DNA from: an uncultured Treponema sp. | GTDB lineage: Bacteria; Spirochaetota; Spirochaetia; Treponematales; Treponemataceae | Direction of reading: 5' to 3' | Assembly (NCBI GenBank): GCA_964429905.1 | Contig: CAYSDV010000009.1 | Span: forward strand, 16,378-80,377 | DNA: 64,000 nt | Part shown: positions 33,959-48,458 of the stretch, piece by piece | Layout of the letters: every line of letters starts with the position of its first letter | How positions within the stretch are numbered: the first letter of the stretch is position 1 | Program-made: the position numbers and the translations under genes | Notes under the pieces: generated by a model | Seen by the model: the letters and a program-made list of their open reading frames with translations, nothing else | Databases searched by the model: none | What the model was told of the DNA's origin: nothing

Positions 33959-35113
33959 TTACGAAATTATTTGCTTAAATAAATACACATACAATGGTTC
34001 TGTCCGAACTTTAATTTTTGCAGTTGCTGTCATTCCTGGAACCAGGCTAATTACTTTCTTGTTCCGTTTGTCAATAAAATCAATATTATCTAAAGTTCCT
34101 GTTATTAAAAAATACGGCTGTCCATCAACTCCAAGCATGGAATCTTTTGAAATATTCAAAACGCGGCCTGTAATACTGGAAAAATTTGATGAAGGATATT
34201 TTTGAAAAGAAAGAGTAAATTCATCACCGGCATGCATTTCTGCAATATCCTGAACATTAACATTGATATAAACATTAAGTTTTCCATTAGCTTCAGGAAT
34301 AATTCTTGCAATTTTTGACTCCGAAACTATCGATTCTCCAATGTTTATTATTTGAAGTTCCTCAATATATCCATCACAGGTTGATTTTAAAACAGTTTGA
34401 TTCATCTGAAGCTGTAATTTTGCAATATTTGACTCAATTTCAGAAATAACAGACTTATTATATTCTAATTCCTCTGAATATTTAACCCGATTATCTGAAA
34501 AGAAATTCTCAAATTCAATTTTTGCACTATTAAATTTATTTTCAGCTTCCTTTAGCTCGATTTTACTTACGGTCTGCGGAAATAATTTTGTCGCTGCCTC
34601 ATATTGAAATTTACAAGATTCCATTTCAAGCTTTAATTTTTTTATTTGATTTGCAAGCGAATATATATATAATTCATTCGAATTTTGATTTTCACTCTCA
34701 TAGTTTTTCATAAAATGAAGTATAGTTTTGTCTTTTTGAACATATTCCTGATATTCTTTCAATCTTTTAAATTGCATTTCAAGTTCCTGCTTAATATAAG
34801 CATTATCAAGAACATACAACGTTTGACCGGCTATAACTTTTTGTCCGTTTTTAAATAATTTTTCTTTTATTGTTCCAGAGGTGATTGGTGTAATATAAAC
34901 CAAATCCTTAGATGGTCTGATTTGTGCATCTGATTTTATAATTACATCATAAGGTGCTATTATTATATAGATAATTATTAGTAAAATTATTCCTAAAATT
35001 ACAAATACAGATTTTTTCACAATGTCAGGAACCGAAAGTTCATAATAAGCCCGTGAGTATTTTAATTCTTTTCCTTCAAGAAAATGTATATCTTCCATCC
35101 TTATAAATTCCAA
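33959..35113 (-). CDS. HlyD-family bacteriocin secretion adaptor
   Basis: 384 aa with an N-terminal TM, lipoyl-like TSGTIKEKLFKNGQKVIAGQTLYVLD and a long coiled coil. It overlaps the ABC gene by 13 nt. Confidence 0.8.
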   Translation of the reverse strand: MEFIRMEDIHFLEGKELKYSRAYYELSVPDIVKKSVFVILGIILLIIIYIIIAPYDVIIKSDAQIRPSKDLVYITPITSGTIKEKLFKNGQKVIAGQTLYVLDNAYIKQELEMQFKRLKEYQEYVQKDKTILHFMKNYESENQNSNELYIYSLANQIKKLKLEMESCKFQYEAATKLFPQTVSKIELKEAENKFNSAKIEFENFFSDNRVKYSEELEYNKSVISEIESNIAKLQLQMNQTVLKSTCDGYIEELQIINIGESIVSESKIARIIPEANGKLNVYINVNVQDIAEMHAGDEFTLSFQKYPSSNFSSITGRVLNISKDSMLGVDGQPYFLITGTLDNIDFIDKRNKKVISLVPGMTATAKIKVRTEPLYVYLFKQIIS

Positions 35114-37230
35114 AGTTCGTAGTATTTACCTTTTAAAGCTAAAAGTTCTTTATGATTTCCACTTTCAACAATATTACCTTTATCCATAACAAAAATTATG
35201 TCTGAATTTTTTACTGTTGTAAGACGATGTGCAATCGTAATTGTTATAATCTCTTTTCCAAGCTCATCAACAACTTTTTGAAAACCTCTTTCGCTTACAG
35301 TATCTAAAGCACTAGTTGCCTCATCAAGCAAGAGTATATCTGGCTTGGATAAAAGGGCTCTTGCCAATGCAATTCTTTGCCTTTCACCGCCAGACAGGCT
35401 TGCTCCTCTTTCTGAAATTTTTGCATAATATTTATCCGGCATATCTTCTATAAAATTATCAGCCTGAGCCAACCTACATGCATACTGAACATCTTCCAGC
35501 GAATAACCAGAACGCCCCATGACAATATTTTCAAAAACCGTACCGCTGAATAAATACACTTCCTGCGGTACATAACCAATTCTGCTTCGTAAATAACCTG
35601 TATCTATATCTCTAATATCTTGATTTCCAATGAAAACACCGCCTTCATTCGCATCATAAAAATGTAAAAAAAGTTTCATTAGTGTTGATTTTCCGCAGCC
35701 GGATGCCCCGACAAAAGCTATTTTTCTGTTATCGCCAGTAGAAAAAGAAAGATCTGTAAAAACATTTCTTCTTGAGCCATACCTGAAACTTACATTTCTT
35801 AACTCAATAGGTAGAGAAATTTTTGAATTGTTTAATCCATTTTTAGATTTTAATTTTTCTTCTTCCAAGCCATAGATTTCACCAATTCTTTCCGCCGCAA
35901 CAATTGCTTCCTGTATCTGTGGCTGAAGTTCTATAAAACGTGCAAGCGGACCTGTAAAATATCCTGCAAGAGTATTAAAACTTATTAATTCACCTAAACT
36001 TAAGGTGTCTTTTAATATTAAATAGCCACCAATCCAATAAATTAAATTTGTACCAACCCCAGAAATTATACTTGTAATCAACTCCTTTACATTTCCATAA
36101 TTCCAGGCTTTTTGACCCAAATCAATATAACTTACAAGACGTCGCTCATACTCTTCTGTTGAATAACCTTGTGCATTTATGCTTTTTATCACAGGAATTC
36201 CCCCAAGCATTTCCACAAGATATGAGTTTAACTCCGCACTCTGTTCCATTTGCTCGCGATAATTCTTTACAAAAAACTTGCTGGAAGCCCAAACAACCAA
36301 GGAAGAAAGCGGAACTGTAATTATCAAAATCAAGAATAATTTGTAGCTGGTTACTCCTAAGTAAATTCCAGTAAAAACCATCATCAGCAAATCAAGCAAA
36401 GTTCCAAGTGCAATATTAGAAAGAGTTGTCCGGATCTTATCGCTATCATTAAAACGGCTTAAAATTTCTCCTGTCCTGCGGGTTTCAAAAAAGTTTAATG
36501 GTAAATATAAAACATGCTTTATGTACGAAATTGAAAGTGAAATATTTGTTTTCATTGTAAAAACACGCAAAAACTGAGACCGGCAGACTGTTAAAATCGC
36601 AGAGAAAACAGTCAGACACACAAGCGCAAAACTTAATACATGAAGGGAAGTATGAGCTTTTGAACCAATTATATCATCGACAAAAAATTTAAAATAAAGA
36701 CCGCTTAAAATACCAAACAATGAAAGAACCAAGGAAATAAGCACCATAAATGCCAATAGTCTTATATGCGCAGTAATTAATGGAACAAATTTTAATAATG
36801 CATGACCAGATTTTTGAATAACAAAATCTGGAGTTGGAGAAACAAGAATTAAATAACCTGACCAAATTTTTAAGAAATTTTCTTTTTCATAAGAAATTTT
36901 TCCAAGTGCCGGATCATAAATCCAAACGCGCTTTTCGTTTATTTTTGCAATAACAACAAAGTGATTGTTTCCATTCTGATACTGTAAATGCGCAACAAGA
37001 GGAACTGGAAACTTTTTAGAAAAAATCTGTTCATTCCCTTTTACGGCTTTTGCATCCAGATTAAGTTTTTTGGCAGCCTCAAGCATTCCTTTTAAAGATG
37101 TGCCTTCCCTGTCCGTTCCGGCAACTTCACGGATTTTCGTTATGGAAAGATGACTACCAAAGTGGCTTGCCAGCATTGCAAGACACGCCGCACCGCAATC
37201 TGTTTCATCGAATTGTTTTATGAGTTTCAT
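35101..37230 (-). CDS. peptidase C39 domain-containing ABC exporter (double-glycine leader cleavage and export)
   Basis: 709 aa. C39 catalytic Cys lies in QFDETDCGAACLAML. Walker A is GASGCGKST, the signature is LSGGERQR and Walker B is ILLLDEATS. Confidence 0.9.
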   Translation of the reverse strand: MKLIKQFDETDCGAACLAMLASHFGSHLSITKIREVAGTDREGTSLKGMLEAAKKLNLDAKAVKGNEQIFSKKFPVPLVAHLQYQNGNNHFVVIAKINEKRVWIYDPALGKISYEKENFLKIWSGYLILVSPTPDFVIQKSGHALLKFVPLITAHIRLLAFMVLISLVLSLFGILSGLYFKFFVDDIIGSKAHTSLHVLSFALVCLTVFSAILTVCRSQFLRVFTMKTNISLSISYIKHVLYLPLNFFETRRTGEILSRFNDSDKIRTTLSNIALGTLLDLLMMVFTGIYLGVTSYKLFLILIITVPLSSLVVWASSKFFVKNYREQMEQSAELNSYLVEMLGGIPVIKSINAQGYSTEEYERRLVSYIDLGQKAWNYGNVKELITSIISGVGTNLIYWIGGYLILKDTLSLGELISFNTLAGYFTGPLARFIELQPQIQEAIVAAERIGEIYGLEEEKLKSKNGLNNSKISLPIELRNVSFRYGSRRNVFTDLSFSTGDNRKIAFVGASGCGKSTLMKLFLHFYDANEGGVFIGNQDIRDIDTGYLRSRIGYVPQEVYLFSGTVFENIVMGRSGYSLEDVQYACRLAQADNFIEDMPDKYYAKISERGASLSGGERQRIALARALLSKPDILLLDEATSALDTVSERGFQKVVDELGKEIITITIAHRLTTVKNSDIIFVMDKGNIVESGNHKELLALKGKYYELWNL

Positions 37231-37297: not shown

Positions 37298-37540
37298 TTA
37301 TGACGAACTACTAGATGAACTAGAACCTGAGCCTGAACTTGAATTAGATCCTGAAGAACCACCTGAATTATTATCGCCACTTTTAGAACCACCAAAGATT
37401 GAGAAACTGCAACTAAAGCAAATACTTAAAGTGCAATCACCTCCATTAATATCCGCTAATTCATTTTCGGATAATCCATCGACAAGACCAAAACTTGCAT
37501 ATAAGTTATGATCTTCTACCGTTTTTAATAATCCAAACAC
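37298..37540 (-). CDS. double-glycine precursor peptide 1 (GTG start): Cys-rich core with a long Gly/Ser tail
   Basis: Leader MFGLLKTVEDHNLYASFGLVDGLSENELADINGG. Core DCTLSICFSCSFSIFGGSKSGDNNSGGSSGSNSSSGSGSSSSSSSS. It lies immediately upstream of the C39-ABC exporter. Confidence 0.75.
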   Translation of the reverse strand: MFGLLKTVEDHNLYASFGLVDGLSENELADINGGDCTLSICFSCSFSIFGGSKSGDNNSGGSSGSNSSSGSGSSSSSSSS

Positions 37541-37629
37541 TATTTTTTCCTTTCTTGTAATTGCGCAACTACATTTTTAATATTTTTAATTCCATACGGA
37601 ACTAATTTAAAGCTGATCAGGCTTCAAAA

Positions 37630-39135
37630 TTACAATTCATTAATATTTTTCAATTTTTCAAAAAGTTCTTCATCTCTTGTAATACTTACCAAAGATTTTA
37701 AAATATCGTCATTCGTTGACCAATAATCGGGAAAAAAACCTATCCCCTCAGCTACAGGCGAGTCTTTCATCTTAAATTGAGCCAATCTTATCGAAATTCC
37801 TGAATTTCGTAATTGATAAAAGAAAATGTTTCCATAATTAAAACACCCATATGTATTTTCACCAACTAAAATTAGTTGATTTGATTTTTCAAATAATTCT
37901 TTTGCATACGCTATAACTAGTTCAGATGAAGACGCTGTCCCTTTATCAGTAACAATAATTAAGTTTCCATTAAACTTTGATTTTATTTTTTTTCTTCTAT
38001 TTTTTTCTTTGGATAGAAATTCAATTCTTTTGTTTTTTTTATATAACTTCCTTAATTCTTCATATAATTTAATATTTTCATCATTTTCCGAATAAGTCGT
38101 TTTTTCTATTTTTTGAATAGCCTGATAAATTGCTGGAGACATTAAAAATACATTATCAAAAGAATCAAAATTTTTAATTCTAGTATCAGAAACTAAAGCA
38201 TTTAAAAATTTTGAAGGATGAGAACTATGGCCCCCTCCATTTCCTCTCAAATCAAGTATTAAATTTTGTTTATCTCTAAATTTTTTTCCTGCATTTTCAA
38301 AATCTAAAAAATATTTATCTAATTTATTTTTATAGCTAGTAAACTCCTTTGGTAAATCCATAAAAGTTCTTATACCTATATACGCAGTTGTTTTTGTTTC
38401 AATTTCTTTGTACTTTACTAAATCTTCTAAGTTCTGTTGCACTGCTACAGAATTTCTATATGTACAATTCACTTCATATTTTTTCATATCTAAATAAAAA
38501 GAGATATTTACTTCTTTAAATGAACTATCTGAAAATTTTCCAACTCTGTAAATGTTTTTTCCTTCTGAAGGATATTTAAATAAAAATTCCTTTTGAATTT
38601 TCACTGGTGCATTTATACGAAAATCAGGATTCTTTGTTTTATAAACAAAGAAATTATTATTTTTTTCTAACAAATATAAATCAGAAAAAAATACACATTG
38701 ACTTTTTACAAAATTTTTACTGAAATCTAATATATCTATAAAAAAGTGAGTATCGTTTATATATTTCGCTAAATAATTATAATAATATTCAGATATTTCT
38801 GATGTGGAAATACTTTCCCTATTTTTAAACTTATTTTCACAGTCCTTTAAAAATTTATCAGAATTAAATCCATTCAGGGACATATCATTAAACCCTGCAT
38901 AGGCAGATTCTAATAAATAAATTAAATTTCTGCAATCTTCTAAAAAATCTTCATGAGATACTTCAAACTTAAAAAATCCCTGAAAATTATATTGATCACA
39001 TAAAATATCTTTATAATCAACATTTTTTTCTGAAATTAACTTTACTTCCGCCATACAATTACCACCAATGATAATAAAAAAAAGAAGGATATTAGAAATA
39101 TCAGTAAACAAAATCTTTCTTAAGATATTTTTCAT
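37630..39135 (-). CDS. secreted S41-family (tail-specific/C-terminal processing type) peptidase
   Basis: 501 aa with a hydrophobic N-terminus. Has LILDLRGNGGGHS and IIVTDKGTASSSELVIAYAK (Ser nucleophile region). Confidence 0.65.
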   Translation of the reverse strand: MKNILRKILFTDISNILLFFIIIGGNCMAEVKLISEKNVDYKDILCDQYNFQGFFKFEVSHEDFLEDCRNLIYLLESAYAGFNDMSLNGFNSDKFLKDCENKFKNRESISTSEISEYYYNYLAKYINDTHFFIDILDFSKNFVKSQCVFFSDLYLLEKNNNFFVYKTKNPDFRINAPVKIQKEFLFKYPSEGKNIYRVGKFSDSSFKEVNISFYLDMKKYEVNCTYRNSVAVQQNLEDLVKYKEIETKTTAYIGIRTFMDLPKEFTSYKNKLDKYFLDFENAGKKFRDKQNLILDLRGNGGGHSSHPSKFLNALVSDTRIKNFDSFDNVFLMSPAIYQAIQKIEKTTYSENDENIKLYEELRKLYKKNKRIEFLSKEKNRRKKIKSKFNGNLIIVTDKGTASSSELVIAYAKELFEKSNQLILVGENTYGCFNYGNIFFYQLRNSGISIRLAQFKMKDSPVAEGIGFFPDYWSTNDDILKSLVSITRDEELFEKLKNINEL

Positions 39136-40408
39136 AATGCAACTCCAAGAAATTATTCATATTTGATTTAAAAACAGGACATTGACCATTCCCATTTTGC
39201 TTTAAATTTGGACATCCCCCCTGACAATTATATAATAGAGTGCAGTTCTTACATTTATTATCAAAAATTGCCATAGATTTAATCATGTAATCTGATTCAA
39301 TTTTTAAATTTGAAAACGACTTATCCGTTAGAGAAAGAACAGCTTTTTCTACATTACCTACATCGTCCCAGCATTTGTACATATAACCTATTGGATCAAT
39401 AACATAATTATTTAATACTTGGGCACCACAATAAAAGCAACCTTTGTTTTGTAAGTACTCATTGTGAGATGTTATTCCATACTTTTTATTCAATAATTTT
39501 ATATATTCTTTTTCATCTTCAGATTTTACTTTTATTTCTGTTTTGTCTAAACAAGAATTATAATTATCAACTATTGCATAATACACATTGAAAAAATTTC
39601 CATACTTCTTATAAAGCATATTCTTAATCTTTGGATAATCGTTTTCGTTCGTTTTATCAATATTCACACGTATACTAACATTAGGCCAGTAACCGTTGAA
39701 ATTGCAATATGTATACAACATTTCAAGATTATCCATAATTCTTCCAAAGGAATCAGGATTAGAAACATGAGGTCTTCGTCTATTATGAGTTTCTTTATCC
39801 CCATCAAGAGTAATCTGAATATTTTTTAGCCAGATAAAATCAAAATATTTAACAACTTCTTCCGTCAGTAAGTATCCGTTTGTGACTATACTTTGACTAA
39901 CATCAAATCCCGCTTCATAGGTTTCATGATTAAAATGTTTAATAAAATCTAAACACAAGAGAGGCTCACCACCATACCAATCTATTTTCAAATGTTTCAC
40001 CTTTCTTTCTTTTGCAAAATCAATAATTTTTTGTGTCAAAGACAAATCCATCATTTTTGTATTTCGAAATTTTTTCTCAAAACAATACGAACATCTAAAA
40101 TTGCAATTCATTGTTGGAGCAATTATCAAATTCATGTAATCATTTTGAGAATGCATTTTTGCCCATCTAAGCAAATATAATCTATCGAATTCATCATCTG
40201 TATATTTGGAAAGAACACCTGTCTTTTGAAACTTCGCAAGAACATCACAAGGAATATTCAATTCCTTTCCATTTTTGTAATCATCTATTGATTTCTTTAA
40301 TTCATCAGAAAGTTTAAAAAAACTGTTTGAAAGCCCTGCATATAAAAGCCAGCCGTATTTTTCACTTTTAAATAAATAGTTTCTTTTTGACCAATATAAC
40401 TTATCCAT
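39101..40408 (-). CDS. radical SAM/SPASM-domain peptide maturase
   Basis: 435 aa. APTMNCNFRCSYCFE is the CX3CX2C motif. C-terminal SPASM cysteines are CFYCGAQ...YKCWDD...CKNCTLLYNCQGGCPN. Confidence 0.85.
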   Translation of the reverse strand: MDKLYWSKRNYLFKSEKYGWLLYAGLSNSFFKLSDELKKSIDDYKNGKELNIPCDVLAKFQKTGVLSKYTDDEFDRLYLLRWAKMHSQNDYMNLIIAPTMNCNFRCSYCFEKKFRNTKMMDLSLTQKIIDFAKERKVKHLKIDWYGGEPLLCLDFIKHFNHETYEAGFDVSQSIVTNGYLLTEEVVKYFDFIWLKNIQITLDGDKETHNRRRPHVSNPDSFGRIMDNLEMLYTYCNFNGYWPNVSIRVNIDKTNENDYPKIKNMLYKKYGNFFNVYYAIVDNYNSCLDKTEIKVKSEDEKEYIKLLNKKYGITSHNEYLQNKGCFYCGAQVLNNYVIDPIGYMYKCWDDVGNVEKAVLSLTDKSFSNLKIESDYMIKSMAIFDNKCKNCTLLYNCQGGCPNLKQNGNGQCPVFKSNMNNFLELHYEKYLKKDFVY

Positions 40409-41885
40409 TTTTTGTTCCGTTTTTTATATTAAAAATTTCAAAAATATTTTCCTTATTAGCCGCAACTATCAATCCACAATCTGATTTGTAATAATCAATT
40501 CCTGAATATATAGGCTTTCCAACAATTATTTTTTCATAATTTTTTTCTAAATCTATTTTTTCATTAATTTTATCTAGTTTTACAGGAATTTCTGATAAAG
40601 ATATATTTTTTAGCGTTCCTTTAAAATACGGCCATCTTTCATTCTTTTTCTTAAAAGATTCATCTGCCAATGGACATAAATTTAAAATTTCCCTTTTCAT
40701 TTCCTGATATTTTTTTGAAATAAATCTATTTGCTTTTAATTCTGAAATAATTTTTTCATAAACTGCGTATCTAATACATGGATAGATAAGGTTATCAATA
40801 AAATGGAACAGAAATGACATACCTATGTATTCTCGCATTGCCATATTGCTAGAGAGAGTTGTTCTGCTTTCTCCAATATTGCAATATTCAAACCATTCTT
40901 TTGTGTGTAAAAATGGAAAACGAGCTCTGTCAAAGGATGTAATGTCAAAATCTCTGTAATAAAATTTTCCTGTCGGCAAATATGATTCATCTAATTCAAG
41001 CATCATGTTTTGGCAATGATTTTCCAAAACAATGCCGTGTTCAGTAAATAATTTTAGAAGAATGTTTTTTATTGGACAAAAAATATATGCCTCTATAAAT
41101 TTCAAATAACTTAGTTCAGAAGCTTTCCATGCTTTGTAAATGTAACTTTGCTTTAATAAAACCGGGCTTGAAAATGATGCAACAGAACAAACCTTATTGC
41201 AAGCATTGCTATAAAACTCTTCAGGTATTTTTCTTATCACATTTGCCAGGGTTTTAATTCTTCTGTCACCAATCAATACTCTAAATCGATTAGAAAGGAA
41301 CAATGCTCTGTCAGCCGTTATTCCAAATGCAGCAATATCTTCAAAAAAATTCAAATTATCTATATTATCTACACATTTGCAAACAATTTGACTTGAGCCA
41401 TATTGTCCTAAAGCACTGCTCCAGTCTATGTGTCGAGCACCATTTGCAACATTGTCAAAAAGGGTGACTTTCGCAATAAATTTTACATTCGTTTTTAAGT
41501 TAGTAACAAGTAATGAGCGATATGAGGAAGTTGGTGTAGCGATATAAATACTGTCGTTTTCATCTATAAATTCATATTTTCCATTAATCCAAGATTTAAA
41601 AAAATCTGCAGTTTCGGGATGAACAAAAAAAGGATAATATATTTCTTCATTCTTTGATAAAAACAGGTTTTCATCAAAGAATTTCTTTTCTTCTTCCCTA
41701 TAAAGGATAAAATCATTATCAGTTGGAACTAAAAAATAAGGAAGCGCAAATATTTTTTGATTTTCAGGAAGAAAGTCAGGCTTTAAATTCATTTTAAATG
41801 AATTTTCACGCTCTGTACCTTTATATAAATCATAATTATTTAATGTTTGTTCTGCAAATATGAAATCTTGTAATATGCAACTCAT
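40401..41885 (-). CDS. IucA/IucC-like (NIS-synthetase-like) protein, function unknown
   Basis: I prefer the start MSCILQDF (M21 of the track ORF 40401..41945), which matches the start of paralog 47859..48458. Motifs are YPFFVHPETADFF, ATPTSSYRSLLV and LENHCQNMMLELDE..GKFYYRDFD. It overlaps the rSAM gene by 8 nt. Confidence 0.45.
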   Translation of the reverse strand: MSCILQDFIFAEQTLNNYDLYKGTERENSFKMNLKPDFLPENQKIFALPYFLVPTDNDFILYREEEKKFFDENLFLSKNEEIYYPFFVHPETADFFKSWINGKYEFIDENDSIYIATPTSSYRSLLVTNLKTNVKFIAKVTLFDNVANGARHIDWSSALGQYGSSQIVCKCVDNIDNLNFFEDIAAFGITADRALFLSNRFRVLIGDRRIKTLANVIRKIPEEFYSNACNKVCSVASFSSPVLLKQSYIYKAWKASELSYLKFIEAYIFCPIKNILLKLFTEHGIVLENHCQNMMLELDESYLPTGKFYYRDFDITSFDRARFPFLHTKEWFEYCNIGESRTTLSSNMAMREYIGMSFLFHFIDNLIYPCIRYAVYEKIISELKANRFISKKYQEMKREILNLCPLADESFKKKNERWPYFKGTLKNISLSEIPVKLDKINEKIDLEKNYEKIIVGKPIYSGIDYYKSDCGLIVAANKENIFEIFNIKNGTKNG

Positions 41886-41905
41886 AAACTCACCAATATT
41901 TGAAT
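41668..41905. repeat. ~240-bp near-identical direct repeat, copy 1 (partner 48241-48479)
   Basis: Aligned by eye with one mismatch and one 1-nt indel. It covers the 5' end and upstream leader of the IucA/IucC-like gene. Confidence 0.85.
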
Positions 41906-41908
41906 ATA

Positions 41909-42190
41909 TCATATAAAATGTATATATGCAAGCAAGCATATGCAAGCAAGCATTGCAAAATTATTTGGAAACTTTAGCGAAAAAATCTGTTCGTTACCTT
42001 TTGCGGCTTTTGCGTTCAGATTTAGATTCTTTGCCGCTTCAAGCATTCCTTTTAAAGATGTTCCTTGCCTGTCTGTACCAGCTGCTTCCCGAATTTTTAT
42101 AATTGAAAGATGACTGCCAAAGTGTGTTGCTATCATTGCAAGACAAGCGGCTCCGCAATCTGTTTCATCGAATTGTTTTATGAATTTCAT
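41909..42190 (-). pseudogene. truncated C39-ABC exporter (N-terminal ~75 aa only)
   Basis: MKFIKQFDETDCGAACLAMIATHFGSHLSIIKIREAAGTDRQGTSLKGMLEAAKNLNLNAKAAKGNEQIFSLKFP parallels residues 1-75 of 35101..37230, then diverges. The junction carries a duplicated TGCAAGCAAGCAT. Confidence 0.8.
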
Positions 42191-43035
42191 TTAATTATTT
42201 GTTTAATTTTAAAATTACAGTTTGCCATATGAAAATTTGTATCTTTTAAATCGATTCCTTCCATCAATTTAATATGATTTGATGTTATTCCTATTATTCC
42301 TGCTTGAGGGTCTACTGCTACCCACCCATTATTATTATCATAAAATTCAGCCCAGGCATGAAAAGAAACCTGTTGCGAAGAATAATATAGACCTGTCACA
42401 AATTTACATGGAATTCCTCTCAATCTCATTAATGCAATAAACAAATTTGTATATTCGCCACAAGTTCCTTTTTTATTTTCTAATACCCAAGAAGCAGATT
42501 TTCCATAATTTAAACCCGAACCTATTTCTTCTGCAAGTTTACGATCGTATTTTATAACAGCAACAAGGAAATTTAATATTGCTTTTGCACTCTGAAATTC
42601 TGATAATGTTGAAAACTGTAATTTATTATATATAAACTTTATATTTTCTGCATTATAGTCTATTAAATCAGAACTTTGTAAATATTTTTTTTCTTTATCA
42701 GAAAAACTATTTTTTACATATGTACTACCTTCATTATCAGTGTTACAACTCCTTGAATTATATTTATTCATTGTTCCATGTGTTTTTAATTTTATAATTG
42801 ATTTATTCTTTTTGCTTTTTATATCTATTACTGTTTGTGGATATGAATTCAAAACTAAATAATCAAATTGATTAATTTCCAATTTATAATACTTTTCTTT
42901 ATTTAAATCTGACAGAGATTGTGCATAAACAACTAAAGTCGATGAAAACAACAAAAAAATCAAAATTTTGTAAAATTTCTTTTTAATAAACAAATATTTG
43001 CTCCTTTTTCTGAATTTTTTCATAAGTTTTTTCAA
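42187..43035 (-). CDS. secreted transglutaminase-like (Cys-His-Asp) protein
   Basis: 282 aa with a signal-like N-terminus. Has KKGTCGEYTNLFIALMRLRGIP...FHAWAEFYDNNNGWVAVDP. Confidence 0.65.
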   Translation of the reverse strand: MKKLMKKFRKRSKYLFIKKKFYKILIFLLFSSTLVVYAQSLSDLNKEKYYKLEINQFDYLVLNSYPQTVIDIKSKKNKSIIKLKTHGTMNKYNSRSCNTDNEGSTYVKNSFSDKEKKYLQSSDLIDYNAENIKFIYNKLQFSTLSEFQSAKAILNFLVAVIKYDRKLAEEIGSGLNYGKSASWVLENKKGTCGEYTNLFIALMRLRGIPCKFVTGLYYSSQQVSFHAWAEFYDNNNGWVAVDPQAGIIGITSNHIKLMEGIDLKDTNFHMANCNFKIKQIIK

Positions 43036-44296
43036 GATATTCTTTTATATTTTCTTTTATAATAGGACATTTTCGTTTATTTTCAATTGCTTCATAAGGA
43101 CAGCCACCTTGACAACTAAACATCAAAAAGCAATTTTTACATTTTTCATTAAAAATAACTTGCTGATTAATAATAAAATCAGCTTCTCTTTTTAAATTAA
43201 CTTTTTTACCATCCGCCAAGGAATAAATAGCTTTATCTTTATAACCAATATCATTGTAACATTTATACATATACCCATCAGAATCTATTACATAATGATC
43301 AATAAATTGAGCCTGACAATATCCAACACCACACTGTTTTGGATAAAAATTCTCAGAATGTAGATTATATTTTGAATTAAGTAATTGATAAAATTCTTGT
43401 TCATCTTTCCTATTAAAAGAATCCTCAGCCTGACTAAGACATGAATTATAATTTTTCACAATCCCATAATATACGTAGAAAAAATCACCATACCTTTCTT
43501 CAAAATAGTTTTTGATAAAAGGATAATCTTCCTCATTTGTTTTATCAACATTTACACGAATTGATACGAATATATCATAATTTTTTGTTTTACAAAAATT
43601 ATATAAAAGATCAATATTATCCAAAATATGAGAAAATGAATCTGGATCAGAAACATGTGGTCGCCGTTTATTATGAATTTCTTTTCGCCCATCCAATGTT
43701 ATCTGAAGTCCTTTGAGTCCAATCTTTTGAAAAAACTCTAATACTTCTTCTGTTATTAAATAGCCATTTGTAATCATAACTTGTTTTAACTCAATTTTAT
43801 TTTCTTCAGCTAAAGAATTAAAATACTTTATATGCTCCAATGCTAATAATGGTTCTCCACCATACCATTCAACTCTAATCTTATTTTTGTAATTAGATTT
43901 TGCAAACTTTATAAGCTTTTCTAAAACTGTTTTTTCCATAACACGCTTATTAAACGCATTCTTTTCGTAACAATAAGAACATCGAAAATTACAATTCAAT
44001 GTCGGTGCAATAGTAAAATTTATAGTATCCTGATTTTTTTGAACTTTTAACCAATTCAATTTATATAGCTCATCAAATTCTTCATCGGTATAATTTGATA
44101 ATATTCCAGCCTTGTAAAATGATTCTATTACATCTTGCGGCAAATCACAAATGCCTATTAAATACTCATCAATTTGATTCTTCATTTTTTCGGATAAAGA
44201 AAAAAAACTATTTGAAAGCCCTGAATAAAGCAACCATCCATATTTTTCGGATTTAAATATAAAATTCCGCTTTGACCAATATAATTTTTTTTTCAT
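42983..44296 (-). CDS. radical SAM/SPASM-domain peptide maturase (paralog 2)
   Basis: 437 aa. Has APTLNCNFRCSYCYE and C-terminal CQAQ...YKCYND...CKNCFLMFSCQGGCPY. Confidence 0.85.
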   Translation of the reverse strand: MKKKLYWSKRNFIFKSEKYGWLLYSGLSNSFFSLSEKMKNQIDEYLIGICDLPQDVIESFYKAGILSNYTDEEFDELYKLNWLKVQKNQDTINFTIAPTLNCNFRCSYCYEKNAFNKRVMEKTVLEKLIKFAKSNYKNKIRVEWYGGEPLLALEHIKYFNSLAEENKIELKQVMITNGYLITEEVLEFFQKIGLKGLQITLDGRKEIHNKRRPHVSDPDSFSHILDNIDLLYNFCKTKNYDIFVSIRVNVDKTNEEDYPFIKNYFEERYGDFFYVYYGIVKNYNSCLSQAEDSFNRKDEQEFYQLLNSKYNLHSENFYPKQCGVGYCQAQFIDHYVIDSDGYMYKCYNDIGYKDKAIYSLADGKKVNLKREADFIINQQVIFNEKCKNCFLMFSCQGGCPYEAIENKRKCPIIKENIKEYLEKTYEKIQKKEQIFVY

Positions 44297-44298
44297 TT

Positions 44299-45747
44299 TT
44301 ATTCCTTTTGTATTATTTGAACTAAAATATCATTTTGAAAACATAAAACATCATCTTGTTGTGTTTTATAATAATCAAAATTTATGTTATTATCTTTTTT
44401 CCAAACTTGAATCTTTTTAGAATAATTTTCCATAATAAAATTATTAATTTTTTGTAATTCAACAGGTATTTCTGTTTTATGTATTTTTGAAAACATTTCT
44501 TTTCCAAAACAATAATATTTCTCATCGTAAAATTGTACATCCGACATTAATTCTTTAATTTTACTTCTAATTTTGCCTCCCATCTTCTCATATATTTCAT
44601 TCATTTCATTTTTTGTAATTATGTTATTTTTCTCTGCAGAGATTAAACATGGTCGAATCAAATTATCTAAAAAATGATTAAACAAATTAATGCCAATATC
44701 TTCCCTTGCACTTGTATTAGCATAAAGAGTTGTTCTATCTGGTCTATTTTTTATATAACTATTCCACAGGTTAGGAAAAATAAATGGAAATCGGGCTCTA
44801 TCTAACGCAATTAAATCAAAATCTCTATAAAAAAACTTCCCCGTAGGGATATTTTTTTCATTTATTTCCAATAATGTATTTTGACAATGAAATTCTAAAG
44901 AAACCCCTGTCTTTACAAGCAAGTCAATAATTATCTGAAAAAGAGGATTAAATACATTATTTTCAAAAAAAATCTGAAATATTTCTCCACTGTTTTTATA
45001 ACCAATAGATAATAAAGAATCTTTATCTACAAGACTCATATACGATGCAAAACTTAAACATTTACTTTCACTATTAAAAAAATCATTCGGTATCAATCGA
45101 ATGACATTTCCAAGTGTTGAAATATATCGACTCCCAAATTTTATCTTAAATCTATTTGAAAGAATCATAGGAAATTCACCACTTATTCCAAAGGCTCCAA
45201 TATCCTTAAACACTTCTAGATTTAAATTTGATAAAACATCCGTCACAATTTTTGATTGTTCATATTGACCAGAAGCCGATTTCCAATCTATATGACGAGA
45301 ACCATTTGCGATGTTATCAAAAATAGAACATTTTACCATAAAGTATTTATCTGTATTTTCATTACGAACAATAAGCGAACGGTACGAAGAACTCGGTGTT
45401 GCAATATATTCACTATTTTCAGAACCAATAAATTTATATTTATTATTTATCCAAGACAAAAACATCTTTTCCGTAGCTGGATGTATAAAAAATGGATAAC
45501 ATTTTTGATTTTTAAAATTATGTTTTAAGTTCTCTTCAAAAAAATCAGAGTAATCTTTTTCGAATATAAACTTATCTTGCTCAATAGGTATTATAAAATA
45601 TGGTAATTTAAAAGATTCTTGATTTTCAGGCTTGTATTCATCTGCAATATTTATATAAAAAAAATCTTTCCATTCTTTTGACTCATAAAGATTATAATTA
45701 TTTAACCTTTGTTCACATTCTACAAATAAACTTAACTTTTTATTCAT
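44299..45747 (-). CDS. IucA/IucC-like (NIS-synthetase-like) protein, paralog 2
   Basis: 482 aa. Motifs are YPFFIHPATEKMF, ATPSSSYRSLIV and LEFHCQNTLLEINE..GKFFYRDFD. It ends 2 nt before the rSAM start. Confidence 0.45.
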   Translation of the reverse strand: MNKKLSLFVECEQRLNNYNLYESKEWKDFFYINIADEYKPENQESFKLPYFIIPIEQDKFIFEKDYSDFFEENLKHNFKNQKCYPFFIHPATEKMFLSWINNKYKFIGSENSEYIATPSSSYRSLIVRNENTDKYFMVKCSIFDNIANGSRHIDWKSASGQYEQSKIVTDVLSNLNLEVFKDIGAFGISGEFPMILSNRFKIKFGSRYISTLGNVIRLIPNDFFNSESKCLSFASYMSLVDKDSLLSIGYKNSGEIFQIFFENNVFNPLFQIIIDLLVKTGVSLEFHCQNTLLEINEKNIPTGKFFYRDFDLIALDRARFPFIFPNLWNSYIKNRPDRTTLYANTSAREDIGINLFNHFLDNLIRPCLISAEKNNIITKNEMNEIYEKMGGKIRSKIKELMSDVQFYDEKYYCFGKEMFSKIHKTEIPVELQKINNFIMENYSKKIQVWKKDNNINFDYYKTQQDDVLCFQNDILVQIIQKE

Positions 45748-45760
45748 TCAATTTCCTTAA

Positions 45761-45785
45761 GTGCTCAAAGAAATTCTTTGAGCAC
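45761..45785 (-). terminator. perfect 10-bp stem-loop between precursor 2 and the modification genes (attenuator or processing-site candidate)
   Basis: GTGCTCAAAG-aaatt-CTTTGAGCAC, 11 nt after the precursor stop. Confidence 0.45.
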
Positions 45786-45796
45786 TTTTTTCATTA

Positions 45797-45958
45797 TCAG
45801 CCTCCTGCAGTTGCAAAACAATAACAACCACCACCAGGAACACCACCGGTATAACAAGAACCACCAGATATGTCATTAAGTTCTGAATTTGAATTAACTT
45901 CTTCTAGTCCAAAAACATTCAAACTTCCAGCCTTTAATAAAAACACTTCTGAATCCAT
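45797..45958 (-). CDS. double-glycine precursor peptide 2 (53 aa, not in the ORF track)
   Basis: Hand translation gives MDSEVFLLKAGSLNVFGLEEVNSNSELNDISGG / SCYTGGVPGGGCYCFATAGG. SD is AAGGAGG, 7 nt upstream of the ATG. The leader is similar to that of precursor 1. Confidence 0.7.
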   Translation of the reverse strand: MDSEVFLLKAGSLNVFGLEEVNSNSELNDISGGSCYTGGVPGGGCYCFATAGG

Positions 45959-45984
45959 AAAAATGTCCTCCTTATATATTAAGA

Positions 45985-46016
45985 ACTTTTTTCAAATCCA
46001 AAAATTTGAAAAAAGT
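45985..46016. promoter_or_regulatory. 13-bp perfect inverted repeat in the precursor-2 leader (operator or 5'-UTR hairpin)
   Basis: ACTTTTTTCAAAT-ccaaaa-ATTTGAAAAAAGT. Confidence 0.45.
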
Positions 46017-46028
46017 ATTTTTAAGATT

Positions 46029-46058
46029 ATTCTACTATATATATATATATATATTGTC
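46029..46058 (-). promoter_or_regulatory. sigma-70-type promoter for precursor 2 with a (TA)8 spacer
   Basis: The minus strand reads TTGACA-ATATATATATATATATAG-TAGAAT (18-nt spacer). The TA run is at 46036-46052. Confidence 0.5.
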
Positions 46059-46092
46059 AATAAGTTTTTAATAAAAAAATAAAAAAAATAAA

Positions 46093-46131
46093 TCAATAAA
46101 AATTTCCATCAAATTGTTTTATCAGTTTCAT
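46093..46131 (-). pseudogene. 12-codon remnant of a C39-ABC exporter start
   Basis: MKLIKQFDGNFY* can be compared with MKLIKQFDETDCG of 35101..37230. Confidence 0.6.
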
Positions 46132-46139
46132 AATTATTC

Positions 46140-46259
46140 CTAAAGCAGCCGCTCACCAATTTTGGCTAGCTTTTCTTTCATGGCTTCGTCGTTTGTTACA
46201 AGAAAAATTGTTTCATTCAAGTCTTCGCCGGTTGACACTGTTCTTAATGCGTTAGGCAT
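46140..46259 (-). CDS. precursor-like small ORF 3 (39 aa, no GG site; probably degenerate)
   Basis: MPNALRTVSTGEDLNETIFLVTNDEAMKEKLAKIGERLL. It occupies the same position as precursor 1, after an S41 gene and before an exporter start. The upstream intergenic is conserved (TTTAATTCCATACGGAA.TAA.T.AAAGCTGATCAGGCTT). The N-terminus resembles MFGLLKTVEDHN. Confidence 0.3.
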   Translation of the reverse strand: MPNALRTVSTGEDLNETIFLVTNDEAMKEKLAKIGERLL

Positions 46260-46344
46260 TTTTAAGTTCCTTTTTGTTTTTGCGCAAAAACCGTTAATAT
46301 TTTAATTCCATACGGAATTAACTCAAAGCTGATCAGGCTTTTTA

Positions 46345-47856
46345 TTACAATTTATTAATATCCTTCAATTTTTCAGAAAGTTCTTTATCTCCAGTAATAT
46401 TAACAAGCGCCTTTAAAATATCTTCGCTTGTTGTCCAATAATCTGGCATTATGCCAAAACCTTCGTTGTTTTTCTCTAAATTATATGAAAACGTCCCCAT
46501 GTGTAATGCAATACCTGAATTCGGAAGTTGATAGCAGAAAATGTTTCCATAAGCCGTACATCCCATGGTATTTTCCCCTAAAACAATTAACTGTTCTGAG
46601 TGTGAAAATATTTTTTTTGCATAAAATACAGTTGATTCCGCAGATGAAGCCTTATTTTTACCTGTTAGAATTATTAATTTCCCTTCATATTTTGCTGATT
46701 GTATCTTAAGTTTGTTTTTTTTGTTATTCTTGACAACAATTTTTTTATATTCATTTTTTAAAAGTTTTTTATCTAAATCAAATTTTTCTAACAAATTACT
46801 GTTATCAGTCAGACAGTAATTTTTAAACCAAGTTTCAGCCTGAATGATAGCAGGAGATACATAGTCTATTCTGTTTTCTTCATTTAAAATTGTTTTTTTT
46901 AATTTATTCACATTATTCTTTGTTGTATTATCAGAACAATTTTTTTCTGCGTAAAAAAGATTGGATAAAAATCTAAATGTATAATAATCATTCCCACCGC
47001 CATTTGTACGCAAATCTAAAATGACACATTTTTTCTTGCCATATCTTGCAGAAACAGAACTAAGTTTTTTGTAATTTTCATCCACAATTTTTCTTAATGG
47101 ATTTGATTTTTCTAAATCAATTAAAGTTGGAACAAAAATATAAACCGAATTTCTTGTTTCAATTTCTTTATAAAGACCCAATTTATTACAAGATAAATGA
47201 ACTGTATCAATATTACACAATATTTTTCGTTGCATTCCAGAATATGAAACATTCACCCACATTTCATTTTTATTTAAACTTGCCATAGAACCAATTCTAT
47301 AAACATTTTCTCCTTCCGAAGGATATAAAAACAGATTTTCTTTTTCGATTTCAAGATTTTCACCAATACTAAAACTTTTATTATCAGATTTTTCTACAAC
47401 ATAACTATCATTATTTTTTTTAACATAAACATTTGAATACAAAACCCTGTACTTTATTATCAGCTGTTTTGCAAAATCCTTACTTTCAATACAAAAATGA
47501 GAATCCTGAATATATGGGGCTAAAAAATCATATATAAACTGGCTTAAATCAGATACGTTTATATTTTCTTTACCTATGTACAAATTCTTAAATTTTTCAA
47601 TTATCAGGTCTATTTCTAAACCACATTGTACAGCGTCATCATAGCCAGCATAAGCCGATTTCAAAAGATAAATCATCATATCTAGATCTTCTATAGCTTG
47701 ATTAAAAAAAATTTCTTCTTTAAACCATTTTTGGTAACCAAAAAAGTCACAGCGTACATCACGATACTTACACGGTTCTGATAAGATTACTTTAAAATTT
47801 GCCATACAAACTCCACATGCAATCAAAAAAACAAAAATTAACAATAGTTTTTTCAT
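46345..47856 (-). CDS. secreted S41-family peptidase (paralog 2)
   Basis: 503 aa. Signal is MKKLLLIFVFLIACGVCMA. Has VILDLRTNGGGND and ILTGKNKASSAESTVFYAK. Confidence 0.65.
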   Translation of the reverse strand: MKKLLLIFVFLIACGVCMANFKVILSEPCKYRDVRCDFFGYQKWFKEEIFFNQAIEDLDMMIYLLKSAYAGYDDAVQCGLEIDLIIEKFKNLYIGKENINVSDLSQFIYDFLAPYIQDSHFCIESKDFAKQLIIKYRVLYSNVYVKKNNDSYVVEKSDNKSFSIGENLEIEKENLFLYPSEGENVYRIGSMASLNKNEMWVNVSYSGMQRKILCNIDTVHLSCNKLGLYKEIETRNSVYIFVPTLIDLEKSNPLRKIVDENYKKLSSVSARYGKKKCVILDLRTNGGGNDYYTFRFLSNLFYAEKNCSDNTTKNNVNKLKKTILNEENRIDYVSPAIIQAETWFKNYCLTDNSNLLEKFDLDKKLLKNEYKKIVVKNNKKNKLKIQSAKYEGKLIILTGKNKASSAESTVFYAKKIFSHSEQLIVLGENTMGCTAYGNIFCYQLPNSGIALHMGTFSYNLEKNNEGFGIMPDYWTTSEDILKALVNITGDKELSEKLKDINKL

Positions 47857-47858
47857 AT

Positions 47859-48458
47859 CTAGTAAATAAAATCCTTCTTTAATGATTTTTCATAATGCCG
47901 TTCCAAAAATTGACTTATATCATTTTTAAAGACATGACATATTCGTTTATTTTCAAGAGAATGCTTTGGGCATCCTCCTTGACAACCAATAAACATAAAA
48001 CAATTTTTACAAACTTTATCAAACATTGACTGAGATTTTATAATATAATCAGACTCTGCAAGGACATTATTGATTTTTTTATCATTTAAATTATAAACGG
48101 CTTTATTCTTGATTCCGATGTCTTCCCAGCATTTATACAAAAATCCTTCTGCATCAACAACATAATTATTCAGTATCTGAACTCCACAAAAGCAGTTTCC
48201 AAACCATTGTGAATAAAAAACTTTATCCTCAATTCTATTTTTTTCATCAAAGAATTTCTTTTCTTCTTCCTTATAAAGGATAAAATCATTATCAGTTGGA
48301 ACTAAAAAATAAGGAAGCGCAAATATTTTTTGATTTTCAGGAAGAAAGTCAGGCTTTAAATTCATTTTAAATGAATTTTCACGCTCTGTACCTTTATATA
48401 AATCATAATTATTTAATGTTTGTTCTGCAAATATGAAATCTTGTAATATGCAACTCAT
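47859..48458 (-). pseudogene. chimeric ORF: N-terminus of an IucA/IucC-like gene fused to the SPASM C-terminus of a radical SAM gene (deletion scar)
   Basis: Residues 1-72 are about identical to residues 21-92 of track ORF 40401..41945. The rest (FGNCFCGVQILNNYVVDAEGFLYKCWEDIG...CKNCFMFIGCQGGCPKH...) aligns with the last ~125 aa of the rSAM/SPASM proteins. Confidence 0.8.

Follow-up and report, generated by a model that had tools for sequence, protein, structure and literature searches.

A probable RiPP precursor gene beside siderophore-synthetase-like and radical SAM/SPASM genes in an uncultured Treponema

The precursor gene, its operon and its leader

The present work concerns pre2, a gene for a 53-residue peptide on the minus strand of a 64,000-nucleotide stretch of DNA from an uncultured Treponema sp. 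(contig CAYSDV010000009.1; the whole of this stretch is referred to below as the window), together with the genes for putative modifying and exporting proteins that accompany it. It is very probable that pre2 is the structural gene for a RiPP, a peptide made by the ribosome and modified after its translation, for which a pathway of maturation and export can be proposed. A preliminary description of the locus had placed a precursor gene at the head of the second of two modules, and pre2 is indeed the first gene of an operon with the order precursor, NIS-like, radical S-adenosylmethionine (rSAM)/SPASM, transglutaminase-like, where NIS-like denotes resemblance to the NIS synthetases of siderophore biosynthesis. 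The observation made in that description is confirmed, and its interpretation is supported with minor corrections. The features of the operon and the export genes of the locus are as follows, in window coordinates.

45797..45958, minus: pre2, the 53-residue RiPP precursor gene, with an ATG start; orthologues P0001-P0004
45860-45958, minus: leader of pre2, codons 1-33
45800-45859, minus: core of pre2, codons 34-53
45797-45799, minus: stop codon of pre2
45967..45973, minus: Shine-Dalgarno sequence AAGGAGG, 8 nt before the pre2 ATG
45985..46016, minus: hairpin of 14 pairs in the 5' untranslated region (UTR), flanked by the -10 element and the Shine-Dalgarno sequence
46029..46060, minus: promoter-like element, with TTGACA at 46055-46060, a 20-nt (AT)n spacer at 46035-46054 and TAGAAT at 46029-46034
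45759..45787, minus: stem-loop of 13 pairs after the stop codon, between pre2 and NIS2
44299..45747, minus: NIS2, 482 residues, NIS-synthetase fold (IucA/IucC-like plus FhuF-like)
42983..44296, minus: rSAM2, radical SAM/SPASM peptide maturase, 437 residues, its start overlapping the NIS2 stop by 4 nt
42187..43035, minus: transglutaminase-core protein with an N-terminal signal peptide, likely true start ATG 43023 (Pfam Transglut_core, 84.9 bits)
35101-37230, minus: intact C39-peptidase ABC exporter (TIGR01193, 604.7 bits against a cut-off of 523.85; Peptidase_C39, 142.6 bits)
33959-35113, minus: HlyD-type adaptor

The recomputed translation of pre2, MDSEVFLLKAGSLNVFGLEEVNSNSELNDISGGSCYTGGVPGGGCYCFATAGG, is identical to the hand translation given in the preliminary description. 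Its 33-residue leader is of the double-glycine type, ending in SELNDISGG (residues 25-33), of which ELNDISGG agrees with the consensus for leaders of this type, (L)-x3-E-L-x2-(I/V)-x-G-G. The 20-residue core, SCYTGGVPGGGCYCFATAGG, holds three Cys and two Tyr, as had been described, seven Gly, where eight had been counted, and no Asp or Glu; its unmodified monoisotopic mass is 1826.71 Da, and that of the whole peptide 5292.37 Da. Public gene callers have called the exact protein on 18 contigs or more, giving it neither a name nor a Pfam domain, and variants at 75-91% identity are also present in public data. SRR22974102 and SRR17244095 are among the metagenomes in which the locus is present. 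No NCBIfam family was found for pre2 or for precursor 1 (37298-37540), the corresponding peptide of the first module, and pre2 likewise has no Pfam match. All pre2 variants for which the DNA was read end in TAGG followed by a stop codon. An apparent WWK tail on P0002 was rejected as an artefact: the gene had been called with a code in which TGA stands for an amino acid, and its DNA has TGA TGA.

The leader was said to be homologous to that of precursor 1, and BLASTP aligns the two with 11/20 identities (E = 2e-4). An alignment of 14 leaders of the family has invariant L13, F16, G17, E26, G32 and G33, and the pattern L-x(2-3)-FG-x8-EL-x4-GG is shared by leaders across the Treponema clade. When all six frames of the entire window were translated, the motif E[LM]xx[ILVM]xGG was found twice, in precursors 1 and 2 only, compared to a mean of 0.08 matches in shuffled sequence.

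Conservation and expression signals of pre2

Conservation beside orthologous enzyme pairs had been set beforehand as a refuting test of the precursor assignment. In all of the following groups of loci, of which the first four are closely related lineages, the NIS2 orthologue has a pre2 orthologue directly upstream of it.

L001-6: NIS2 orthologue 99-100% identical, near-identical loci
L023-30: NIS2 orthologue 78% identical, in another chromosomal neighbourhood, within a fatty-acid/aryl-polyene-like cluster
L031-34: NIS2 orthologue 80-84% identical
L035: NIS2 orthologue 71% identical over the 51 residues available
L038/39: NIS2 orthologue 47% identical, a distant lineage

Without exception the precursor gene directly precedes NIS-like and rSAM/SPASM genes that are coupled in translation. 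The precursor core of the distant lineage is YQPGNGPGPCYCFSTANG, and the sub-type as a whole carries the signature PCYCF[A/S]TA[G/N]G at the extreme C-terminus of the core. The C-terminal nonapeptide CYCF[A/S]TA[G/N]G is near-invariant, even where the enzymes are only 47% identical; the Cys pair of its CYC motif, which would supply the donors for thioether formation, is invariant in all five lineages, and the Tyr and Phe within CYCF are conserved. The N-terminal half of the core is variable (for example SCYTGGVPGGG versus CSYTSGNGSGP), and P0001 alone among the CYCF-type cores has an acidic residue, a single leading Asp. Pairwise dN/dS of pre2 between four lineages is 0.22-0.40, and in the last nine codons (CYCF[A/S]TAGG) pN is 0-0.05 versus a pS of 0.16-0.63; as judged from these substitution patterns, pre2 is under purifying selection. 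One variant from an ENA contig, P0004 (43 residues), lacks ten core residues, SCY[TGGVPGGGCY]CFATAGG. This deletion lies between its two CY repeats and suggests that the N-terminal half, which varies, may be dispensable or prone to recombination.

The strong Shine-Dalgarno sequence of the preliminary description is present at the correct spacing, and (A/G)AGGAGG is kept in the orthologous loci. The consensus promoter that had also been claimed stands only in part: its hexamers are perfect or near-perfect and are conserved in five pre2 lineages (those listed are the window, L001:100, L023:8918, L031:89 and L035:1225), but the 20-nt (AT)n spacer between them lies outside the 16-18 nt that was applied here as the spacing needed for a sigma-70 promoter, and a scan for sigma-70 promoters did not call the element because of this spacer. 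The same pair of hexamers is also found upstream of a NIS gene of the module 1 type (L019:1332). The AT-rich (AT)n spacer measures 20 nt in the window and 10, 12 or 16 nt in the other loci, and the window and L001, which encode the same 53-residue precursor, differ in its length by exactly 10 nt. From its sequence and its variation, the element looks like a phase-variable promoter built on a simple sequence repeat. Promoters of this kind with a dinucleotide repeat in the spacer include the (TA)n promoter of the Haemophilus influenzae hif genes; the pre2 element resembles them in having (AT)n between conserved -35 and -10 hexamers and in varying in length between near-identical loci (10 versus 20 nt), and differs from them in that most pre2 spacers are far from 17 nt and in that the variation is known here from the comparison of one locus with another alone.

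The downstream stem-loop that had been described proves to be real, with its pairing kept in three lineages, across which five of its 13 pairs are changed on both sides in a compensatory manner; its folding energy is -18.2 kcal/mol (z = -4.8 relative to shuffles), and a hairpin is also found 3' of the distant L038 precursor. Since the coding strand has no run of U after it, the stem-loop does not qualify as a canonical terminator in the coding direction, and a terminator scan flagged it for the opposite strand only. It is probably an attenuator or an element of mRNA stability. On the other side of the gene, the whole 75-nt 5' UTR folds at -14.1 kcal/mol (z = -2.7), and the different sequences that occupy this position in L023 and L031 are also inverted repeats, as judged by eye. 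In L023-L030 a poly-G tract which varies from G6 to G9 between contigs lies about 15 nt past the stop codon of the pre2 orthologue, inside an insertion of about 110 nt with flanks GTGGGG...CCCCAC that takes the place of the simple hairpin; this variation could be real hypervariability or noise in homopolymer assembly. Matches to Rfam in 45500-46500 were sub-threshold hairpin look-alikes only (mir-8186, 28.5 bits against a gathering threshold of 80) and were rejected.

The putative enzymes, the exporter and the mosaic locus

Against the Pfam family IucA_IucC, NIS2 scores 26.0 bits, just above the gathering cut-off of 25, and NIS1, its counterpart in the first module, matches the FhuF part only. 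The AlphaFold model of NIS2, which was computed from a family alignment of 31 sequences (pLDDT 89.3, pTM 0.89), was compared to the Protein Data Bank (PDB) with Foldseek, and all of the top 50 matches were NIS synthetases (E 1e-13 to 1e-11, TM about 0.55), the proteins represented being IucA, IucC, AcsD, DesD, AlcC, AsbB, SbnC, NcdF and DfoC. A profile search of the PDB with NIS2 reached NIS synthetases at marginal E-values (0.008-0.2), and a profile of the NIS N-terminal segment alone found nothing there. The only match of a single-sequence search of the PDB, CGI121, was rejected as spurious.

In an alignment of hidden Markov models (HMMs), of which the N-terminal stretch is below significance when taken alone, the family-invariant residues S121, R123, K139, R151 and E285 of NIS2 align to S279, R281, K293, R305 and E442 of AcsD, and the likewise invariant H287, Q289, N290, R308 and D309 align to H444, Q446, N447, R463 and D464. 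These AcsD positions we take to be the ATP/Mg-site residues of the AcsD structure, in which the roles of the residues binding nucleotide and Mg were reportedly established by Schmelz et al. in 2009. Because the residues that correspond to this site are invariant, it is likely that NIS2 retains an ATP-dependent, carboxylate-adenylating activity. No siderophore context, in the form of genes for diamine or citrate tailoring or for uptake, was found in the locus or in the related loci examined; the partners in all related loci are an rSAM protein, a precursor, an S41 peptidase or transglutaminase-like protein, and ABC/HlyD components. NIS2 is thus like the NIS siderophore synthetases (IucA, IucC, AcsD, DesD, AsbB, SbnC) in its fold and in the residues of the AcsD nucleotide site, and differs from them in being about 100 residues shorter and in that an rSAM maturase and a leader peptide always accompany it. 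Because of this constant association, its substrate is presumably a peptide.

rSAM2 has the two features expected of a maturase of the sactipeptide or ranthipeptide kind, namely a CxxxCxxC motif (C102/C106/C109) and a SPASM auxiliary-cluster domain (TIGR04085, 46.6 bits against a cut-off of 27) whose Cys cluster occupies residues 322-410 at the C-terminus, and it also matches the Pfam families Radical_SAM (61.3 bits) and Fer4_12. The profiles that match it best describe maturases of Cys-rich peptides (Clo7bot, TIGR04463, CefB, geopeptide, PapB, CcpM and SCIFF), and it falls below the NCBIfam cut-offs for Clo7bot TIGR04334 (210.1 versus 600), TIGR04463 (171.2 versus 525), CefB NF038107 (169.7 versus 600) and PapB NF047865 (117.9 versus 340). 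By its sequence, then, rSAM2 is a relative of the sacti- and ranthipeptide maturases and not a member of a named family. The known systems of this kind, namely ranthipeptides/SCIFF, sactipeptides (thermocellin CteA/CteB, freyrasin PapA/PapB), Clo7bot, TIGR04463 and CefA/CefB, resemble the present one in having a short Cys-rich core after a leader and an rSAM maturase that is extended at its N-terminus and has a complete SPASM domain; the present system differs in that rSAM2 lies far under their cut-offs and pre2 matches none of their precursor models. To our knowledge, none of them has a partner that resembles a NIS synthetase.

Five orthologues of rSAM2 (in L023, L025, L026, L027 and L029; for example L023:10781-12094) are interrupted by three independent nonsense mutations, CAA>TAA at codon 86, CAG>TAG at codon 321 and TGT>TGA at codon 109, the codon for the third Cys in CxxxCxxC. 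The mutated genes are otherwise at least 99.5% identical and without indels, and those of L024, L028 and L030 are intact. Homopolymer frameshifting or phase variation was rejected as the cause of the split genes, since the changes are point nonsense mutations without indels.

The transglutaminase-like protein has a signal-like N-terminus and a candidate triad C192/H226/D242, both read from its sequence. Its gene is present in every CYCF-type cluster and in no other NIS-like/rSAM cluster examined.

The remaining features of the locus belong to the first module, to the junction between the modules, and to the remains of a third.

37298-37540, minus: precursor 1, 80 residues, poly-Ser tail (module 1, 37298..41945)
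37630-39135, minus: secreted S41 peptidase (module 1)
39101-40408, minus: rSAM1 (module 1)
40401-41945, minus: NIS1, likely ATG at 41885 (module 1)
41909..42190, minus: 93-residue remnant of the C39-ABC exporter of module 2; its first 75 residues match the intact ABC transporter at 87% identity, and the rest is unrelated
46093..48458, minus: decayed third module, upstream of module 2
47859-48458, minus: NIS'::rSAM' fusion open reading frame (ORF), 199 residues (third module)
46345-47856, minus: S41 peptidase, after the fusion ORF (third module)
46140-46259, minus: 39-residue ORF, an S41 C-terminal remnant that resembles the S41 C-terminus (...DLNETIFLVTNDEAMKEKL...)
46093-46131, minus: remnant of a C39-ABC gene start after the S41 remnant, 12 codons, MKLIKQFDGNFY and stop

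The earlier statements that the two modules carry paralogous enzyme pairs and act on quite different cores agree with the data: NIS1 and NIS2 are 43% identical and rSAM1 and rSAM2 53%, and the core is Cys/Ser-rich with a poly-Ser tail in module 1 and short, of the form CYCF...AGG, in module 2. The architecture of module 1 is repeated in L010, L012, L013, L015, L016 and L019. In the precursors of this type, that of the window included, a short segment of alternating hydrophobic and hydroxyl or Cys residues (for example LSITITT or TLSICFSCSFSIF) is followed by a long Gly/Asn/Ser spacer and then by the poly-Ser tail, and they always adjoin a secreted S41 peptidase of the C-terminal-processing type, which suggests that the tail is removed outside the cell.

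The ABC exporter and HlyD-type adaptor at 33959..37230 are the sole complete machinery for processing and export in the locus. In other metagenomes module 2 stands alone (L001-3) with a full C39-ABC transporter of 709 residues where the window has the 93-residue fragment, and because these stand-alone copies keep the transporter, module 2 of the window must have lost its own by recombination with module 1, the fragment at 41909-42190 marking the recombination junction at which the two modules were fused. With its own exporter reduced to a remnant, module 2 must, we infer, rely on the transporter of module 1 for cleavage and export. In the fusion ORF at 47859-48458, residues 1-72 are 98.6% identical to residues 21-92 of NIS1 and residues 63-199 match the C-termini of rSAM1 and rSAM2 at 41-49% identity, a composition that identifies it, at the level of sequence, as a deletion fusion and the wreck of a third NIS/rSAM module. 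Neither the truncated exporter nor this third module had been noticed in the preliminary description. The same S41 and ABC scars that lie upstream of module 2 in the window also precede the stand-alone module 2 of L001, so it seems that module 2 entered an S41-ABC junction as a cassette.

The cluster family, proposed maturation and rival explanations

The family of NIS-like proteins to which NIS2 belongs is rare. It comprises 34 clusters among 5.8 billion proteins, almost all of them unnamed, the few named entries being "hypothetical protein [Treponema sp.]"; it was found at 12 loci in the JGI metagenome set and at four loci in 185,579 species-representative genomes, three of these being in metagenome-assembled genomes of Treponema or Spirochaetaceae and one on a contig binned as Paratractidigestivibacter. 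The family is essentially confined to Treponema, and the clusters to Treponema of the gut and rumen. A search of the literature found no description of a NIS-like enzyme in a RiPP pathway, nor of these clusters, and the NIS-like plus rSAM/SPASM cluster family appears to be undescribed.

Within the Treponema clade the constant set of genes encodes the NIS-like protein, the rSAM/SPASM protein, one or more precursors with a double-glycine leader, the C39-ABC transporter and HlyD, usually with a secreted S41 peptidase. The cores are of several types: poly-Ser-tailed, short and ending in TGGQ, ending in GGGP(I/L)xY, tandem short and rich in Tyr, Cys and Gly, and CYCF. The tandem type is seen in L007 (13803-14601, 19629-19838), where four short precursors with the cores LGLGPCYGCPSR, YCVGYGGLPAR, IYFGPYAGPFGR and CCAPYCHAGN are accompanied by a second rSAM gene. 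L040 (10878-11045, 12744-12905) has two precursors ending in GGGP(I/L)xY, each followed by an S41 peptidase gene of its own, and L008 (6217-6309) and L022 (2035-2136) have TGGQ cores, that of L008, DSTSGNMTGGQ, being without Cys.

An exhaustive profile search gave 752 more distant NIS-like relatives. All 18 of those that were scanned against Pfam are non-canonical, none scoring like a canonical siderophore enzyme, and the one relative whose context was placed, P0120, has no adjoining rSAM or precursor gene; because it lies outside a RiPP context, the association with RiPPs would be specific to the Treponema clade. In P0142 a divergent IucA/IucC-like domain is fused to a ThsB-type TIR domain, and in P0161 to a Zeta-toxin/AAA domain. 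A non-siderophore branch of the NIS fold may therefore also occur in conflict systems.

The maturation of the pre2 peptide can be envisaged as follows. Transcription would start at the TTGACA-(AT)n-TAGAAT element, and the conserved hairpin after the stop codon would let the precursor message outnumber that of the enzymes. The leader would dock the peptide on the NIS2/rSAM2 pair and guide its modification, in which rSAM2 would link the CYC cysteines to carbon atoms close by, forming thioethers of the sactipeptide or ranthipeptide type. One candidate link, Cys12-x4-Thr17, would be of the thermocellin type, the thioether link of thermocellin having Cys-x4-Thr spacing. At the expense of ATP, NIS2 would adenylate a carboxylate, from which it would make an amide or an ester. 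Because the pre2 core has no Asp or Glu, its C-terminal Gly is the sole candidate for a peptide carboxylate; alternatively, NIS2 may load a small acid onto the hydroxyl of a Ser, Thr or Tyr residue. The latter reaction has a parallel in AcsD, which joins citrate and a serine hydroxyl. The proposed activation of a peptide carboxylate with ATP is also like that of the lasso cyclase (of the Asn-synthetase type) and of the ATP-grasp ligases of graspetides and microviridins, by analogy only; those enzymes have an unrelated fold, and the pre2 core lacks Asp and Glu. The C39 domain of the exporter at 35101-37230 would then cut after Gly33, and a product of about 1.8 kDa would be exported with the HlyD adaptor, while the secreted transglutaminase-like protein, which has a Cys-protease fold, would serve outside the cytoplasm, either to trim the product in a last step or to protect the producing cell itself (immunity). 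The product is most likely a bacteriocin-like peptide used in competition.

A more far-reaching proposal is that the NIS-fold protein is an active, leader-dependent peptide modifier, by adenylation of the C-terminal Gly or by transfer of a small acid to a hydroxyl, which works in tandem with the rSAM/SPASM enzyme and thereby defines a new class of RiPPs, pre2 being the substrate of one sub-type and its expression possibly being phase-variable through (AT)n. This proposal is put forward tentatively, with somewhat less than even confidence.

Several points weigh against the assignment of pre2 and its pathway as set out above. Every chemical step is deduced from sequence, a structure model and gene context, rSAM2 is under the cut-off of every named maturase family, and the NIS-like protein could have a non-catalytic role. 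Of the three Cys residues only two are conserved, the first being absent from the distant L038 core, and some putative cores of the family contain no Cys (DSTSGNMTGGQ in L008, IYFGPYAGPFGR in L007), so that thioether formation cannot be the chemistry of the family as a whole. The 20-nt spacer is non-permissive for sigma-70, and pre2 may be silent in this genome. In natural populations the maturase has been lost repeatedly, and the system is often lost.

In one rival explanation the precursor assignment is right, but rSAM2, instead of making thioethers, makes C-C or C-O cross-links on aromatic or hydroxyl residues (Tyr3, Tyr13, Phe15, Thr17) or epimerises residues, and the Cys residues form disulfides or are acted upon by another enzyme. 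The Cys-free, Tyr/Phe/Gly-rich cores elsewhere in the family (IYFGPYAGPFGR, DSTSGNMTGGQ) speak for it, as do the conservation of Tyr and Phe within CYCF and the presence of the cyclophane formers YhhB, GrrM/OscB and AmcB among the lower-scoring SPASM matches of rSAM2. The rSAM proteins beside the Cys-free cores are, however, only about 26% identical to rSAM2 and hence have little bearing on it, while the best-scoring named relatives of rSAM2 (Clo7bot, TIGR04463, CefB, PapB, CcpM, SCIFF) all act on Cys-rich peptides and the CYC Cys pair is invariant. Chemistry of this other kind is regarded as rather unlikely.

It is also rather improbable that module 2 is a silent or decaying cassette in this genome, with pre2 intact but neither expressed nor exported. 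Such a state would suit the long promoter spacer, the reduction of the module's own exporter to 93 residues, the mosaic locus with its decayed third module, and the nonsense mutations in orthologous rSAM genes elsewhere. Against it, none of pre2, NIS2, rSAM2 and the transglutaminase-like gene is broken, and their identity to the stand-alone clusters is 98-100%; the locus has an intact transporter, 87% identical to the remnant over its first 75 residues, which stands beside a precursor with a homologous leader; and a change in the length of (AT)n could turn the promoter on.

A further rival is that pre2 encodes an unmodified double-glycine peptide, such as a class II bacteriocin or a pheromone, and that the enzymes are unrelated to it; the fit of its leader to the general double-glycine consensus and the presence of a C39-ABC/HlyD exporter speak for this. 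Peptides of that class, with a C39 ABC transporter of the ComA/LagD type, do share the ELxxIxGG leader, the TIGR01193-type transporter and the HlyD adaptor with the present system. The pre2 leader, however, has the additional family-specific positions L13, F16 and G17, which go beyond the export consensus, the cargo is almost certainly modified, and the host is a diderm spirochaete. Moreover, the succession precursor, NIS-like, rSAM persists across lineages whose enzymes are as little as 47% identical and in different genomic neighbourhoods, a 20-residue core rich in Gly and Cys is atypical of unmodified bacteriocins, and no pair of sensor kinase and response regulator was present among the locus proteins scanned. 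Such a peptide is considered very improbable here.

That pre2 is an open frame which arose by chance in AT-rich DNA between genes, as its shortness and its lack of a Pfam or NCBIfam match might suggest, has a negligible probability and is, at the level of sequence comparison, already refuted by the conservation data: orthologues are conserved, synonymous changes are in excess, the leader motif is nearly absent from shuffled sequence and the Shine-Dalgarno sequence stands at the correct spacing.

The precursor gene alone is a routine result of genome mining in kind; the system around it, in which an rSAM/SPASM enzyme is paired with one of the NIS fold in a mosaic and possibly phase-variable locus, appears to be undescribed. 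With the gene for the substrate in hand, an enzyme pair that could not be interpreted becomes a testable pathway of three small genes, pre2, 44299-45747 and 42983-44296. If the NIS-like partner acts on the peptide, a new enzyme fold would enter RiPP chemistry and the reach of the IucA/IucC superfamily would extend beyond siderophores; the RiPP class tentatively proposed above would, if it is real, be defined by a fold that has so far been known only from siderophore biosynthesis. The mosaic, truncated and nonsense-mutated loci, together with the (AT)n tract, offer a good natural example of how bacteriocin-like cassettes are rapidly gained, lost and switched. The hosts are Treponema of the gut and rumen, which are hard to culture, and the products of these clusters may be factors of competition there.

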